A DNA stretch of 63,690 nt, counting the filler, from Rhabdomonas costata (taxonomy: Eukaryota), in assembly GCA_019059605.1 (NCBI GenBank). It is 41 parts of 41 records of this genome, joined end to end, with 100 filler letters (N's around TTAATTAATTAA, not from the genome) between each part and the next. Parts side by side here need not be neighbours in the genome. Positions count along the whole stretch, not along the records: positions 43,584 to 45,038 come from JAHMHO010015526.1; 40 more parts are not named here. The stretch is one strand, 5' to 3'. Below are positions 33,811-47,300 of the stretch, in pieces. The position numbers and the translations under genes were made by a program. How positions within the stretch are numbered: position 1 is the first letter of the stretch; every line of letters starts with the position of its first letter. Below the pieces are notes generated by a model. It worked only from the letters and a program-made list of their open reading frames with translations. It did not search any database and was not told where the DNA came from.

Positions 33811-34699
33811 CTGAAAAAGCACAGACAGTTTGACAGACATTAGCATGGGGCGCGTTCCTGAAAACCATGAACCACAACCCCCACAATCCAAACAAGCTCG
33901 AGAATCGAATAATGAAGCCTGAGCCAGTTGTCGATGCGTGGCGGCTGAAGTTAACTGATCTCCCGATGTGGAATATCAGCAACATTTTCTATGGAGCGTA
34001 TTTTATCGTTAAAGGCCACCCAGGTCACGTCCTCCGCCCCGCTCGCTGCGGTCGCGTCGCCGACTGACCTTCGCGCTGTCCTACTCGTCCGTCCATATCC
34101 CAGCCATTGGCAAAGTTAGCAGAAAAAGAAGGACTTGCCAGCTGCAAAACCAACNNNNNNNNNNNNNNNNNNNNNNNNNNNNNNNNNNNNNNNNNNNNTT
34201 AATTAATTAANNNNNNNNNNNNNNNNNNNNNNNNNNNNNNNNNNNNNNNNNNNNGGTTTTGTGGACGATATGTGTATAATGATAACGTTTCGGTAATTGT
34301 AGCCTGCTACTCTCTTCAGGTAGCTTGTTCGATAGGGTACTGGGGAGGAGGGCGGCGGTGTCAATGGGCACCCCAAAGACAGGCTACACGGTTAGCAAAG
34401 TACAAGTAACCAGAAGAAATCATTTGCGCGAGCCAGCCAGGCGGTGGAAACAATATAAAGAGACCGAATAAGGGGTTATTGCATTCAAATCTGCCTACGT
34501 GGTGATCTCTTGGGGGCTTCTTCAATATCTTACCCTGCATCCTTCCCTCAGAGCATTATCAGCTGGGAACGGAAGAAATCACAAGAGAAAGGCCTAAGAA
34601 AAACCCGCGCCACTGTTACCCATCAAAACTTTACAACCTCAACGGTAACAAACCGCTCGATCGCTCAAACTCTCCGCACACACACACCACATAACACAC

Positions 34700-35629
34700 C
34701 ACTGTGTACGGGTACGACATCAGGTGGCCGAAAGGCAACTTCTGGGGCACAGGGGCGAGGTAAGCCTCCCAGTTGGCCAGCGCCATTAGCCTCACCTTGC
34801 CCACACAGGCCAGGTCCTCTGGGGCTTGGAAAGCAGGGTCCAGTCCACCCAGATGCTCAGCCCACAGCGACTGCCGGTAGGCATAAACCTTGGTGAACGT
34901 GTGTGTGTGTGTGTGTGTGTGTAAGATAAATTGCGAGGAGACCGCAAAATTCGTGCTAACCATGTTTCATGGTTTGGGTACCCAGCGCACAATCCCAATG
35001 GCGAGACATGGGCGGAGGAAACCGAGTCATATGTCACGACCAGAAGATGACTTTGGCTCACATCAAGCTCAGTCTCTATGTACTGGAAACTCTCTGAATC
35101 GTTTCGAAGATATGACATCCATTCCAACCACACATGCACGACGGTGTGCAAACATGCCATTAGAAAAGGATGCCTGTCCCCGAGGCCTCGGGTTCTCTGG
35201 CATAAGGTACCCGTTTTGCGCCGCTCCAACCGCGAGCTCCGTGTCGCGGTTGCCTCCCATCGACCCTAACCAAAAACCAAACCGAACGAGCGGCACTTGC
35301 AATTACGGAGAACAGAAGCAAGTAGTTCCTGGCTCATGCATCACACAACTTATACGCCGCCCAGAGAAGGCATCCATTCACTTAATTTGCGCAAAGCTCC
35401 TTCACCCTGCTGACATCAGAATCCTCGTGCGCCGGCAGGAATCACAGAACCCGATCTCCTCGTGTGTGTGTGTGTGTGTGTGTTTTTGCGGAGAGAAACA
35501 CGGCACTTTCGTTGATGTTCGCCGAGCCCACCAGCAGATACTCGTCATCGACAACCATGATCTTGCTGTGGACATAGATGGGATGCCGGCGGAGCAGGCA
35601 GACATGCTGCTGCGCGGGACTCTCCGGTG
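34700..35629 (-). CDS. PLD: Phospholipase D, C-terminal region (plant C2-PLD-like), three exons
   Basis: Exons 35629-35507, 35265-35174 and 34888-~34700 read [38 protein letters not shown]...[18 protein letters not shown]...GHLMSYPY, including the second HxKxxxxD motif. Confidence 0.93.
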
Positions 35630-43108: not shown

Positions 43109-43583
43109 GTGGGAAGCTCCTCCCTTGTGTTTGTGTTATGAAGGGAACCAGGGCTGATTCTGATTTTGGTTCTTTTTCTGAACCCGCGCACGCTGTTGAT
43201 GCACATGCAGTGTAGCGTAGGGCACGGGCACTTCAGCTTTCTCCACGAAAGTTACAATCTGCTTCCCAATCCTCTAGTCTATGATGGCATGATGACTGCG
43301 TCTTAAAAGTGTCCTTTCACTGTAGAAAATGGTCATTGTGCTAGGAAATGGGAGATGAGTACGGTCTCGCTATCAGATCGTCTTCGGATCTAATGATAGC
43401 GCATCATCTTCTTACCGCATAGATGGATTGCATTCGTAATGAGCATTTCCCCCTCAATCACGAAAATTTTGCAAGAGCACCAANNNNNNNNNNNNNNNNN
43501 NNNNNNNNNNNNNNNNNNNNNNNNNNNTTAATTAATTAANNNNNNNNNNNNNNNNNNNNNNNNNNNNNNNNNNNNNNNNNNNN

Positions 43584-44363
43584 GTTTTTGGGGTCCCTCT
43601 TCTGCTCGAGGACCTGGAGCTCTGGGAGAATCTTGCGCAGGCAACTCTCTCGGTCGCCGAGAGCATGAACGCCCAGGACGTGGCGAACTGCGCGAACGGG
43701 TTTTCCAAACTTCCCCTGCTGCGGAAAGAGCAGCCCCTGTGGGATGCCTTGGCTCGCACGGCAGTCTCCGTCGCTCAAGAGCTGACTCCACAGGGGGCCG
43801 CCAACTGCGTCATCGGGTTCAGCAAGGTGGGGTCCAAGCTAGGGGACGAGGGCCTCTGGCACGCCCTGGGCGGCGCAGCAGCAGGGCTGGCTCCGATGAT
43901 GACCCCAGAGAACCTCGCAAGCTGCGTTGGAGGGTTCTCTGAGGTTCAACTTCTTCTGCGCGACCGGAAGCTCTGGGGTGTTCTGAGCAGGGCTGTTTTT
44001 GGATGGGTGAAGCACCTGAGCACGCGGCACATGGTGGGCTGCGTCACCGGGTTTTCCAGAGTTGAGCTTTTGAGCGATGACCGAGTCGTTTGGAGAGCTT
44101 TGGCGAAGGCTACCGTGAACTTGGCGAAGGACATGAAGCCTCATCAACTCGTCAGTTGTGTCACTGGGTTTGGCACGGTGAGCTTTCTGCTCTCTGAGGA
44201 GCAGCCGTGGAAGGCCCTTGCCTCTGCTGTGGTGGTCGTGGCTCCGGAGGTGTCCCCGGAGGGTCTTGCAAGCTGTCAGAGTGTGTTTTCGAAGGTTAGC
44301 CTTCTTGGGAAGGACGCTGCCCTTTGGGAGGCTCTGCGGGGAGCTGCCTGCGGGAAGTCGTAG
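43584..44363 (+). CDS. Helical tandem-repeat protein with exact 39-aa period (OPR/HPR/SKWP-like), 5' truncated, intronless here
   Basis: The frame is open from the contig start to TAG at 44361-44363. It holds one partial unit, five complete 39-aa units and a 37-aa terminal unit, with consensus hxPxxhxxCxxGFSKhxhLxxDxxLWxALAxAxxxhAxx. Confidence 0.88.
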   Translation, partial: VFGVPLLLEDLELWENLAQATLSVAESMNAQDVANCANGFSKLPLLRKEQPLWDALARTAVSVAQELTPQGAANCVIGFSKVGSKLGDEGLWHALGGAAAGLAPMMTPENLASCVGGFSEVQLLLRDRKLWGVLSRAVFGWVKHLSTRHMVGCVTGFSRVELLSDDRVVWRALAKATVNLAKDMKPHQLVSCVTGFGTVSFLLSEEQPWKALASAVVVVAPEVSPEGLASCQSVFSKVSLLGKDAALWEALRGAACGKS

Positions 44364-47300
44364 TGCTTTGCACTTCCCTGCTTGCTTTTCGCTTACTTCT
44401 ATTCGTGGAGGGTGTGCAGTGTGCAGTGTGCTATGTACTTTGATACTGTGGGGTTGGCTGTCCAGGGGTGCGTCGTGCCCTTTGCCCGACAAACACAGTG
44501 GCGGCGTGTGTTTTGCAATGATTGGATTTTTAAAAAAATAGGCCGAGGTTTCCTCCCGTCTCTCTCATCGCAAACGGGGTGCTCTTATTTGGTGGATTTT
44601 GTCCGCGATTTTATTGCTGCAATATTTTGATGTGCTTTTAGTGTTTCAGCTGATGCGTTGAATATGCGAAGCGTTTTATGGCGGGAAACTGTCAAACGGA
44701 GTTTAAAGGGGCGAAGGGAAGATCCCCACTGCTGAAGGTTTAGCGATGTGTCCAAGCCTCCACGTAACTTTGCTTTGTAGGTGAAGTGTCCCGCGCCTGG
44801 TTTCCAAATCTCGGTGCCCAAACTTGTGCTCTTTTCATGGCTCTTCTTGGCTCCGGGAGGCTACAGGGGTGTCCAAGGAACTTCGATTTCGACCTTATTC
44901 TCCCCATCCGATGTTGTGGCGTGTGGCTTAGTGCTTCGTTGCTGGTGCGGGTCGAAGACGCCGCCCCAATACAAAGCGCAAGTGCAGGAGTATTTCGACG
45001 CACACTGCCGAACTCACTCCATTTCGTCCCCACCACACNNNNNNNNNNNNNNNNNNNNNNNNNNNNNNNNNNNNNNNNNNNNTTAATTAATTAANNNNNN
45101 NNNNNNNNNNNNNNNNNNNNNNNNNNNNNNNNNNNNNNGGGGGGGTGTGCGAATTCACAGAAAGTGTCAGCGACATTCCGCCCGTCAACCCGCCCATCCA
45201 CCAAACCCCTGGCCTCACATAGCAATCTGAAAAGTAACCGCCCTTCATTCTCTTGCATCCGATATCGTGATGAGAAGCTCCCCAAGTTGGCGGGAGAGTC
45301 AAATAAATTCAAACCCCTGCCTATCCATAGCAGCCAGCGCGCAAGCCCATTTTCTCGCTCTGCTCTTCATCTTCCCCGTCAACAAAAAAATGATCGCCTT
45401 TTGCATTGCGAGCGGAGGTGCCATTATTGTTGTAGCCACACTGTTTGGGAGGAGAATTACCCCCAGTCCTTGACTGTTTAATTGTGTGGGTGAATGAGTC
45501 ATGCGTGAGTAAGGGACTGAGAGAGAAACAGAGAATGATGCAATGGAACTTGAAAACAACCCCCGGCATGGACGATTCCAGCATTCCAGTGTTCCCTTGG
45601 ACAGAAACTTTCAGCGGAAGGGCACCCAATGCAATCTATCACGGCGTCCAAGCGCAGGAACGGGCCCCTAAGGTTGCGTGGAAAGCTCGGCAGCTTCACC
45701 CACGGCTGAGCAAACTGTGTGCAGTGCCGCGGCTGATGTTTCCTTGCCCAAGAGTGCTGCAACAGACCGCGTGGATGTGACGGACTTTAGAATTTCGATG
45801 TTCGATCCAACAACACATACATCCAGAGCGGGATTACGTACCGAGGGTGTCTCGGGGCACCTCCACTGAAAGAACGAGCCCAGCGGACGGCTTCCGTTGG
45901 AGCACACCGAGACAGGTGTCAGTGCTTGCGCGGGCAGCACCTCAAAACCACGAAAATGAAATGCCAAAAGGAATCCACACACAGTCAGAAGACAAGTAAT
46001 AAACTGCGCACTTCGGTGTATCATGTGGCGCAGTGCTCACATACATAAGCATGGAAAAAAGCGCTCAGCAATGTTCACTGTACAAAGGGTATGACATTGG
46101 GGGAAAAAATGAAGGAAGGAGATGAATGAAAAAAATGGCAAGTTAGGAGGATGGATGTGTGGGTGTGCAGGGACCCGCACAGTGTGTTTCCGGGTGGGGG
46201 TGGGGTCAACTTCCAAACGAGGGTTTGAACGAATTGGACATTAAGGGTCTCGTGCTCACAAAACACAAATTGGGTCCAACTGGCACAATGCGAAGCATAC
46301 TGTGTCCTGAGTAATGGTGGTGGTGACCATGCTGCTAGGTACAGTCATGACCACTGTGTTATTCTCGGCCACGGTGAACCCGGCATGTGCAGAAGAGCAC
46401 TGCCGGATGTAAGGGTGCCCCCGCGGACAAACCGTAACCTGTACACGTGCGTCCGGCGGCGTGCGCCGGGGATACATATTTGTTGAAAAATGAGTGGAAT
46501 CAATGGAAGGAAAATCCTCGCGGCTAGGAAGTCACATCATCCCGCAGGACGGGATGATGTGCCGGATTGAATGTCGAATAACCCCACAAACCNNNNNNNN
46601 NNNNNNNNNNNNNNNNNNNNNNNNNNNNNNNNNNNNTTAATTAATTAANNNNNNNNNNNNNNNNNNNNNNNNNNNNNNNNNNNNNNNNNNNNGGGAGTTT
46701 TTTTTTTAAGGATGATAACTCACCAACCTCTTCACCTCATCGATACATAGATAAGATCATGGCAGAAAATTGGAACCCTCGCTATGCAGTTTTATTGCAA
46801 TTTTCTTTTAATCTGTAAGAAAAAAAGCGCTGGCGCTGCGAGGGAAATACAAGTGTTTGTTGAAGATCGCAGGGCCATTCTTAGTAGTCAGCAGCAAACC
46901 ATCGACATGGCAGGTGCTCAGAATTTCTTTTTGTACATACCGAGTTTTGTGGTGATTCGTTCACAGCCCATCCTCTCCATCCATTTGTTCCTGGGCAAAA
47001 ATGTCTGCGAAATGCGAAATTACACAAACGACCGAAGGAAAACGAGTGACACAGTCCAGAGAAACATGGCGCAGTCGGTGAAGGAGAACGCCATTCTAGG
47101 AGGACCGGCAAGGGAGAAGGGGGAGGGGGGGCCAAACAATGTCATGGTGCCCGAAGTAAAGCTGGGAAGCCTCGCCGGACGACAATGGAAGGGCAGGGCG
47201 CGGAGTTGACGAGCGAACAGAAGACAACAACAGAAGACAATAGCACAGGAATAGGTACAGGAATAAGCGCAGCACAGAGTCGCTGCAAGGTGCGTGAAAG

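Follow-up and report, generated by a model that had tools for sequence, protein, structure and literature searches.

The open reading frame at positions 43584-44363 (+ strand) of the window, i.e. of the whole 63,690-nucleotide stretch of Rhabdomonas costata DNA that was analysed, is probably the 3' part of a nuclear gene of the HPR/OPR type, which encodes at least seven tandem units of a RAP-less subfamily and whose product may bind RNA, or hold a ribonucleoprotein together, in an organelle. The protein is an ordinary new family member with a slightly longer repeat of 39 residues, and not a new repeat class. The value of this finding is mainly one of annotation: the large HPR/OPR/FASTK-like family of solenoids that handle organellar RNA gains an unannotated, truncated member. 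Of minor, specialist interest are the small RAP-less subfamily with a core cysteine in each repeat, and the statistically clear similarity between the eukaryotic HPR-type repeats and the rhizobial XopAD/SKWP repeats.

The open reading frame and its contig

The window consists of 41 unrelated contigs of ~1,453-1,473 bp apiece, which have been joined by 100-base linkers, and therefore the sequence that neighbours the reading frame in the window is not its genomic context. One such linker (positions 43484-43583: 44 N, TTAATTAATTAA, 44 N) marks the boundary between two unrelated contigs and cuts the gene: the open frame, 259 codons long and followed by a TAG stop codon at 44361-44363, starts on the first base of its contig (43584-45038) and in the middle of a repeat, so that the 5' end of the gene is missing. 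On the basis of sequence, profile and fold matches, we describe the feature as the 5'-truncated coding sequence of an HPR/OPR-type (FASTK-like, RESC6-like) alpha-solenoid protein.

The G+C content of the contig (0.564) lies inside the range that is seen across the window (0.459-0.590), and the G+C content (0.61) and GC3 (0.71) of the reading frame are as expected of coding sequence. The remainder of the contig, located 3' of the stop codon (44364-45038, + strand), is lower in G+C (0.51, versus 0.61 in the reading frame), carries no RAP domain or convincing family match, and is presumably a 3' untranslated region or intergenic sequence.

It had been claimed that the gene lacks introns and that it ends without a C-terminal RAP domain: the first statement stands for these 777 coding bases and is limited to them, while the second stands for this contig, where neither the protein nor any of the three reading frames tested downstream has a RAP match, and is limited to the contig. 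In a window of chained, unrelated, short contigs, it is unsafe to argue from what lies nearby, from how dense the introns are or from domains that are missing. A second copy of the gene was not found in the window by tblastn of the protein (best non-self E-value 0.11), and Rfam, applied to the window at gathering thresholds, returned no RNA family. Separately, a Pfam search of 20 other reading frames in the window gave matches to F-box, LRR and PLD_C only.

A regular array of 39-residue units

The 259 residues are divided into a partial unit of 27 residues that is in register with the rest, five units of 39 residues and a last unit of 37 residues, all on the + strand. The partial unit (unit 0, 43584-43664) corresponds to the last 27 of 39 residues and retains W26 and L29. 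Unit 1 (43665-43781, 39 residues, MNAQDVANCANGFSK...) is the nearest to the family consensus; its score is 41.7 bits with the HPR-37 unit model, as against 27.2 bits with that of SKWP. It is followed by four more units of 39 residues, delimited by the unit division and the unit-model scores: unit 2 (43782-43898), unit 3 (43899-44015), unit 4 (44016-44132) and unit 5 (44133-44249). The array is completed by the 37-residue unit 6 (44250-44360), directly after which the stop codon occurs.

The seven units follow one another at a constant spacing of 39 residues (six spacings), and C9, F13, W26 and L29 are present in 6/6 of the units that span those positions; the five exact 39-residue units with invariant residues at positions 9, 13, 26 and 29, as described in the original prediction, are thus borne out by the translation and the unit division, and the residues that it quoted at the variable positions 4, 5, 7 and 8 are correct. 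At a lag of 39 residues, 81/220 positions are identical (36.8%), compared with a mean of 16.9 and a maximum of 35 in 10,000 shuffles (z 16.5), and with 6-29 identities at the other lags between 30 and 49. The identity between units is low, i.e. 31-41% at the protein level and 45-56% at the DNA level, and therefore the repeats are old and diverged rather than the result of recent duplication. Units 1 and 2 score 42 and 28 bits on the HPR-37 unit model and units 3-6 score 11-17 bits; across the six units, the scores range from 10.7 to 41.7 bits on the HPR-37 model and from 0.1 to 27.2 bits on the SKWP model.

Homology in sequence and profile searches

Our search for related proteins has revealed clear kinship to the HPR/OPR/FASTK/DUF1601 group that the original prediction had named for comparison, a kinship that is seen in sequence, profile and fold matches alike. 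Among PDB sequences, phmmer aligns residues 23-247 of the query with residues 214-428 of the RESC6 chain of T. brucei (E 7.3e-11), with two-residue gaps in each loop, and places human FASTKD4 at E 0.043. Run exhaustively over 1.84 billion representative proteins, phmmer returned 247 matches at E <= 1e-3, with 49 of them at E <= 1e-10; the best match, at 39% identity, possesses a start codon of its own and an N-terminal extension.

The Pfam scan of the relatives took 40 of the top 44 phmmer matches (the four that were omitted are 92-216 residues long). FAST_1, DUF1601 or RAP was found at E <= 0.01 in 36/40 of the scanned proteins, with none of the three in the other four: FAST_1 in 33/40 (28 above the Pfam cut-off), DUF1601 in 19/40 (11 above the cut-off) and RAP in 12/40 (9 above the cut-off). 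The closest relatives, designated P0002, P0007, P0008 and P0170, carry the Pfam family PF26188 (RESC6), which appeared solely as a precomputed label on relatives and in clusters of a protein atlas, and not in the local Pfam scans. In this atlas, clusters of DUF1601, RESC6 and FAST_1 are found at a score of 0.95, and the two top clusters are mainly bacterial. The alignment by hhalign of the subfamily profile with a profile of nine proteins that have both RAP and FAST_1 reached a probability of 99.84% (E 3.6e-30, 278 columns).

The query itself matches no repeat model of Pfam at E <= 10, including FAST_1 (PF06743), DUF1601 (PF07671) and PPR, and two word-index protein searches with the query (against longer proteins and against proteins of similar length) returned no relatives; these were recovered solely by the exhaustive HMMER search and the profile search. 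As no curated model matches the query, its family membership rests on the HMMER, profile and fold evidence.

Two chance matches were set aside. Phage_glycop_gL (19.9 bits) and ATG29_N (16.4 bits) matched the query below their cut-offs, and a degenerate DNA pattern of the subfamily motif, searched in metagenome contigs, gave one match, inside a bacterial reading frame that resembles leucyl-tRNA synthetase.

The predicted fold

The helical-hairpin solenoid that had been proposed for this protein is borne out by the AlphaFold model, which is entirely helical and very confident (pLDDT 95.6, pTM 0.90). Each modelled unit consists of helix A (positions 3-14), a short extra turn (positions 17-21) and helix B (positions 23-38); helix A probably contributes V6, C9, V10 and F13 to the core, and helix B L25, W26, L29 and A32.

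The Foldseek search with the model returned 37 PDB matches at E <= 1e-3, with RESC6 in first place. In the VIA-align comparison, the first 11 rows (Z 18.2-22.1, rmsd 2.5-4.6, 221-250 residues aligned) are all RESC6/RESC8, mitoribosome proteins (from T. gondii, Polytomella and Chlamydomonas) or a Polytomella ATP-synthase stalk subunit, and generic ARM, HEAT and importin proteins are found at Z 11-13.

The proposed role of the protein

The gene, of which the 5' side is cut off by the edge of the 1,455-bp unplaced contig, is proposed to encode a member of the repeat family that is shared with the helical tracts of FASTK/RAP proteins, FAST_1, DUF1601, RESC6 and the HPR/OPR-like proteins of mitoribosomes, with units that would stack into an alpha-solenoid. 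The full-length protein would be taken up by an organelle, with the mitochondrion as the most likely one, and there the solenoid may bind RNA or hold an RNA-protein complex together; its relatives suggest as patterns the capping of rRNA fragment ends and the cradling of the 3' end of a guide RNA. The contact would be made through a surface that is common to several repeats, rather than through a simple code of one base per repeat.

What is described for the relatives points in this direction: HPR proteins are mitochondrial and bind RNA in vitro, according to passages of PMC6212722; the mitoribosome of T. gondii bears HPR and RAP proteins that are described as RNA binders in part of the text of PMC11652630; and a charged crevice between RESC5 and RESC6 holds the 3' end of the guide RNA, as stated in a portion of PMC12936278. 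Judged from these relatives, a role in organellar RNA binding or ribonucleoprotein scaffolding is likely.

The fragment is nearly neutral, with 23 residues of K+R against 24 of D+E and a pI of 6.5, and does not obviously present a basic RNA-binding surface. Moreover, a structural protein, the Polytomella ATP-synthase stalk subunit, is found among the top fold matches, and therefore the fold is no proof of RNA binding. Both observations bear on an alternative within the same family, which we regard as rather unlikely but as the strongest of those considered: that the protein works as a protein-protein scaffold inside some mitochondrial complex, for instance a RESC-like one, a ribosome, an ATP-synthase stalk or an assembly factor, and makes no specific contact with RNA of its own. 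In addition to the near-neutral pI, this alternative is favoured by the presence among the top fold matches of the stalk subunit, which is peripheral (6rd5_3; 221 residues aligned at Z 19.7 and rmsd 4.5), and of RESC subunits that act as scaffolds, as a portion of PMC12936278 has it, and by helix A of units 3-6, which has decayed from the polar Q/N/N/K consensus. Against it, most of the characterised relatives are RNA-associated in the passages concerned of PMC6212722, PMC11652630 and PMC12936278, and the closest full-length relatives are basic, with a pI of 9.36 in P0002, 9.12 in P0008 and 8.56 in P0007.

The repeat period and the subfamily

The period of 39 residues arises from two extra residues in the interhelix loop, relative to the usual unit of 37 residues: in the alignment to a 39-column unit model, columns 19-20 are gapped in 80-89% of the 908 units that come from proteins with a 37-residue period. 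Of the relatives, 139 have three or more adjacent unit spacings, and their modal period is 37 in 96 proteins, 38 in 32, 39 in four, 40 in two, 41 in one, 42 in three and 45 in one. Repeat length is thus plastic in the HPR/OPR/FASTK-like family, with modal periods of 37-45 among the relatives, and therefore an exact period of 39 residues is no ground for a new class.

The signature 'ANCVNGFSK...LW..L' places the protein in a small subfamily, the members of which have no RAP domain: none was found in P0002, P0007, P0008 or P0170, and P0002, a protein of 493 residues with its own start codon, ends ten residues past its last repeat. P0170 and P0008 share the signature and have units of 37 residues, so that close relatives mix units of 37 and 39 residues. 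Less probable than the scaffold, and in our opinion doubtful, is the reading that the proteins with the signature (this reading frame, P0002, P0007, P0008, P0170 and a few fragments) constitute a distinct, undescribed, RAP-less HPR/OPR clade, where the two-residue insertion would have produced a regular, three-element, ARM-like unit of 39 residues with a core cysteine stacked in every repeat, and which could mark the branch that donated the SKWP repeat to bacteria, or received it from them. As part of this reading, no other eukaryotic HPR group was noted to have a helix A as close to the repeat of the bacterial SKWP effectors as that of the clade.

The original prediction had gone further, to a new class of 39-residue repeats, specific to the lineage, in which each repeat would read one base of nucleic acid; with positions 4, 5, 7 and 8 as the reading residues, this we consider very improbable. 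It had in its favour the strict regularity of the array, with a spacing of 39 throughout, the scarcity of this modal period among the relatives (4/139), the variability of positions 4, 5, 7 and 8 within this protein, and the literature: 39-residue tricopeptide repeats are 'apparently missing' in the words of part of a 2025 review (PMC12691811), and the term 'nonatricopeptide' is absent from the literature searched. The claim to a new class is essentially overturned by strong matches to a described repeat family, i.e. by the RESC6 alignment, the 247 phmmer matches, the hhalign result and the fold, which together establish clear homology to HPR/OPR/FAST_1/DUF1601/RESC6. The difference in period is the two-residue loop insertion, units of 37 residues occur within the same subfamily, and the length of the OPR motif is quoted as 38-40 residues in passages of PMC6212722.

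As for the reading of one base per repeat, positions 4, 7 and 8 of P0002, the closest relative, are Q, A and N in 5/6 of its regular 39-residue units; since these positions are nearly fixed there, in the present protein they seem to vary through decay from the consensus. The low scores of units 3-6 on the HPR-37 unit model, set against those of units 1 and 2, also speak against the new class. Across 50 units of the subfamily, positions 4, 5, 7 and 8 are only moderately variable, with more variation in the loop and at positions 27 and 31. A base-per-repeat code is shown for no relative in the portions of PMC6212722, PMC11652630 and PMC12936278 that bear on them.

Equally improbable is the suggestion that the frame is not a working host gene, being a pseudogene, a piece of a gene or a bacterial contaminant contig that carries a DUF1601/SKWP-type effector: the unplaced contig of 1.45 kb, the missing start, the degenerate units 3-6, the significant matches to bacterial DUF1601 and XopAD/SKWP proteins and the two mainly bacterial top atlas clusters are outweighed by 259 open codons with every repeat in register, the core residues kept and a very confident fold, by a GC3 of 0.71 in the frame with G+C that falls to 0.51 past the stop codon, on a contig inside the G+C range of the window, by 675 gene-free bases after the stop codon that are unlike bacterial DNA, by the better score of every unit on the eukaryote-dominated 37- and 38-residue unit models than on the SKWP model, and by a best match of 39% identity that has its own start codon and N-terminal extension.

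Comparison with known systems

The PPR (35 residues), TALE and PUF proteins are helical repeat solenoids in which each repeat can contact one base. The protein examined here is likewise a helical repeat solenoid; it differs in its period (39 and not 35 residues), in having no Pfam match to PPR or any other such family at E <= 10, and in that its units and those of the subfamily give no evidence of a code of variable residues.

The resemblance to SKWP repeats that had been pointed out for the first full unit is real at the sequence level, with matches at E 4.5e-20 (P0010), 7.9e-8 (P0089) and 2.7e-7 (P0099) to rhizobial members of the XopAD/SKWP (RipS-family) type III effectors, which are those of Ralstonia, Xanthomonas and rhizobia, and the helix A motif N-G-F-S-K is common to both. 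The matched proteins are bacterial and 2,300-6,000 residues long, and three of them have a C-terminal shikimate-kinase domain. OPR-type and SKWP repeats have been linked in print before, in part of the text of PMC7729196. The SKWP units are ~42 residues long with an S-K-W-P motif, in our unit comparison as in that paper; here the units have 39 residues and unit 1 alone has S-K-L-P, and the HPR models give each of the six units tested a higher score than the SKWP unit model does.

With the FASTK/RAP proteins (human FASTK and FASTKD1-5, and the RAP proteins of apicomplexans, dinoflagellates and algae), the protein shares the homologous helical tract that is located upstream of RAP; it differs from them in the absence of FAST_2 and RAP, the stop codon occurring directly after the last repeat. 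With respect to the strict OPR repeat, which is described in passages of PMC6212722 as a Chlamydomonas-type repeat of 38-40 residues with a conserved PPPEW motif, the length of 39 residues fits, while a PPPEW-like motif occurs in none of the units.

Another counterpart is the RESC6 protein of T. brucei, also named MRB3010 or GRBC6 (chain 6 of PDB 8fn4 and 8fni). The units of RESC6 are of ~37 residues, as is evident from the two-residue gap per repeat in the alignment, the identity is 17-22% only, and nothing marks our protein as a RESC6 orthologue, or the organism as one that edits RNA. RESC6 is the best sequence match among solved structures (E 7.3e-11), PF26188 is labelled on the nearest relatives, and the fold is among the best (Z 21.7, rmsd 2.6, 247 residues aligned). 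In kinetoplastids, it forms a heterodimer with RESC5 in U-insertion/deletion editing, according to a portion of PMC12936278.

There is also a likeness to the HPR repeats. From the strict HPR repeat, the protein differs in its period (39 and not 37 residues), owing to two extra residues at unit positions 19-20 and a short extra turn, in the sequence of helix A (C-V-N-G-F-S, versus T-A-W-A-F-A in HPR), and in position 26, which is W here and F in HPR; the query also remains below all of the local Pfam models. The HPR repeats are a subset of the OPR family (Hillebrand et al. 2018, PMC6212722) and are covered by the Pfam families DUF1601 and FAST_1. Many HPR proteins have no other domain, as stated in passages of PMC6212722, and the same is true of the fragment described here. 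In both, tandem two-helix units form an alpha-solenoid, with significant matches in sequence, profile and fold, and with a common consensus that reads P-Q-x-[VL]-A-N...[FA]-[SA]-K for helix A and L-[WF]-x-A-L for helix B.

Truncated repeat ORF at a contig edge

The repeat ORF, located at 43584-44363 (+), runs uninterrupted for 259 codons and closes with a TAG stop codon at 44361-44363, the remaining two forward frames being rich in stops. Its protein starts with a partial unit of 27 residues that is in register, followed by five full units of exactly 39 residues each, located at 43665-44249 (+), and a final unit of 37 residues; residues C9, F13, W26 and L29 are kept in all units that span those positions. 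This division into units confirms the exact 39-residue repeats with four invariant residues described in the original prediction, whose listing of the residues at variable positions 4, 5, 7 and 8 is also correct. The 39-residue periodicity is far above chance: 81 of 220 positions are identical at lag 39, compared with a mean of 16.9 and a maximum of 35 in shuffled sequences (n = 10,000), and every other lag between 30 and 49 gives at most 29 identities. The units are 31-41% identical to each other in protein and about 50% in DNA, and thus the repeat array is old.

The window is composed of 41 contigs of about 1,453-1,473 bp, ordered roughly by size and joined by identical linkers of 100 bases (44 N, TTAATTAATTAA, 44 N), and is not one genomic stretch. 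The contig that carries the repeat ORF (43584-45038) starts in the middle of a repeat, with the ORF already open at the first base, and the gene is therefore truncated at its 5' end; the original prediction, which had read the ORF as an intron-less gene within an intron-dense genome, misread this context. The sequence that adjoins this contig in the window is uninformative about the repeat ORF, and, as the contigs are joined by linkers, arguments from neighbouring genes or synteny are unsafe throughout the window. The G+C content of the repeat ORF is 0.61 (GC3 = 0.71) versus 0.51 in the 675 bases that follow it on the contig, where neither a RAP nor any other credible domain was found; the contig as a whole has a G+C content of 0.564, the other contigs of the window span 0.459-0.590, and no related sequence was found on them. 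Antisense to the repeat ORF, a stop-free frame of 241 codons at 43839-44564 (-) most likely arises as a by-product of the high G+C content of the coding strand. Elsewhere in the window, two ORFs of one contig at 26465-27405 (-) match the Pfam models F-box (21.8 bits) and LRR_6 (75.2 bits), and are probably parts of an F-box/LRR protein gene, judging by these matches, in keeping with a eukaryotic genome; an ORF at 34634-34966 (-) matches PLD_C, the phospholipase D C-terminal domain (E 3.9e-10, 39.9 bits).

Family membership and fold

The repeat ORF adds a new, truncated member to a known HPR/OPR-type family. Searched alone, its protein matched none of the Pfam repeat models, and two word-index searches found no relatives. 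Phmmer against the PDB sequences matched residues 23-247 with T. brucei RESC6 (8fn4 chain 6, E 7.3e-11), with a two-residue gap in every inter-helix loop, and human FASTKD4 at E 0.043; exhaustive phmmer against 1.84 billion representative proteins returned 247 relatives at E <= 1e-3, 49 of them at E <= 1e-10. We scanned 40 of the best 44 relatives with Pfam (E <= 0.01), omitting four short ones (92-216 aa): FAST_1 occurs in 33 (28 above the Pfam cut-off), DUF1601 in 19 (11 above) and RAP in 12 (9 above), while four carry none of the three. A profile search built on the nearest relatives yielded nine proteins. P0002, P0007, P0008 and P0170, relatives from the same subfamily, carry a precomputed PF26188 (RESC6) label, and hhalign aligned the subfamily profile with nine RAP and FAST_1 proteins over 278 columns (probability 99.84%, E 3.6e-30), with the same two-residue loop gaps as with RESC6. 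In the protein atlas, the clusters nearest to the repeat ORF are labelled DUF1601, RESC6 and FAST_1 (score 0.95).

Among the relatives, HPR-type repeat tracts are fused to an RNA pseudouridine synthase domain (P0044) or to a CCCH zinc finger with RAP (P0011), twelve DUF1601 repeats occur with a ResIII/DEAD helicase (P0031), and Peptidase_U32 is fused with FAST_1 and RAP (P0048). The DNA motif pattern of the subfamily had only one match in metagenome contigs (L001), within an 861-aa bacterial ORF (25-2610, -) that resembles leucyl-tRNA synthetase by eye; we rejected it as a chance match without kinship to the repeat family.

The AlphaFold2 model, built with a 50-sequence alignment, is all helical (pLDDT 95.6, pTM 0.90), which bears out the helical repeats that had been predicted; each unit is formed by helix A (positions 3-14), a short turn or one-turn helix (17-21) and helix B (23-38). 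Foldseek matched the model with 37 PDB chains at E <= 1e-3, RESC6 being the first, and the first eleven rows of VIA-align (Z 18.2-22.1, rmsd 2.5-4.6, 221-250 residues aligned) contain only RESC6/RESC8, solenoid proteins from the mitoribosomes of T. gondii, Polytomella and Chlamydomonas, and an ATP-synthase stalk subunit from Polytomella; the next matches, at Z 11-13, are importins, catenins and designed armadillo proteins. The predicted structure thus shows an alpha-solenoid of the HPR/OPR/RESC6 type. Kinship with the HPR and OPR repeats that the original prediction named for comparison is supported, while the claim of a new repeat class is not, given the sequence, profile and fold matches to described HPR/OPR/RESC6 repeats. 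From the helical pattern, the conserved residues V6, C9, V10 and F13, together with L25, W26, L29 and A32, look like the core, and one face of helix A would carry Q4, N8, N11 and K15.

On its contig, the last repeat is followed by the stop codon, and RAP is absent from P0002, P0007, P0008 and P0170; the subfamily is therefore likely RAP-less, barring a downstream exon on another contig. P0002 (493 aa), which has a start codon of its own, ends 10 residues past the last repeat, and its N-terminal extension is presequence-like by eye.

Origin of the 39-residue period

The HEAT repeats of the PP2A A subunit are a well-known case of 39-residue helical repeats. We iterated the unit model over 153 proteins and counted the spacings of adjacent units in the 139 with at least three: the modal period is 37 aa in 96 proteins, 38 in 32, 39 in four (the repeat ORF, P0002, P0146 and, weakly, P0131), 40 in two, 41 in one, 42 in three and 45 in one. 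Model columns 19-20 are gapped in 80-89% of 908 units from proteins with the 37-aa period, and the 39-aa unit is therefore an HPR unit with two additional residues in the inter-helix loop. The signature ANCVNGFSK...LW..L is common to the nearest relatives, and occurs both in P0002, with 39-aa units, and in P0170 and P0008, with mostly 37-aa units. HPR repeats are described as 37 aa and OPR motifs as 38-40 aa long (PMC6212722), and HPR has been placed within the OPR family (PMC13126933). As tricopeptide repeats of 39 aa are "apparently missing" according to a 2025 review (PMC12691811), and the word "nonatricopeptide" is absent from the literature searched, an exact 39-aa period may be unreported for the HPR/OPR family, yet it is a small variation.

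Putative function

HPR proteins are described as mitochondrial and RNA-binding (PMC6212722), the T. gondii mitoribosome, with its fragmented rRNA, is decorated by HPR and RAP proteins (PMC11652630), and a charged crevice between RESC5 and RESC6 holds the guide-RNA 3' end (PMC12936278). Because of these functions of its relatives, we favour an organellar role, in which the solenoid surface would hold RNA or an RNA-protein complex across several repeats. A purely scaffolding role stays a real rival, since the fragment has a near-neutral pI of 6.5 and a structural ATP-synthase subunit is among the best fold matches, although the full-length relatives are basic (pI 8.6-9.4). The further proposal that each repeat reads one base is unsupported: positions 4, 7 and 8 are almost fixed in P0002, the most variable positions over 50 subfamily units are the loop (17-24), 27 and 31, and units 3-6 of the repeat ORF look, in their sequences, like decay from the consensus. 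Of the predicted RNA-binding function, a link with RNA is still probable, by analogy with the relatives.

Comparison with SKWP effectors

Those relatives whose period is 42 aa are genuine rhizobial type III effectors of the XopAD/SKWP family (Bradyrhizobium, Mesorhizobium and Sinorhizobium), which matched the repeat-ORF protein at E 4.5e-20 to 2.7e-7 in the exhaustive search; three of them (P0010, P0089 and P0099; 2,352-2,935 aa) carry a shikimate-kinase domain (SKI, E 8e-37 to 5e-45) at the C-terminus. Kinship among OPR-type repeats, FAST-kinase-like/RAP proteins and SKWP effectors has already been published (PMC7729196). The likeness to SKWP repeats noted in the original prediction holds in these significant matches and in the N-G-F-S-K residues that the XopAD/SKWP unit consensus shares with the repeat-ORF subfamily, but the units themselves are closer to the shorter repeats: for each of the six units tested, the 37- and 38-aa unit models outscore the SKWP one, as in unit 1, with 41.7, 37.6 and 27.2 bits, respectively.
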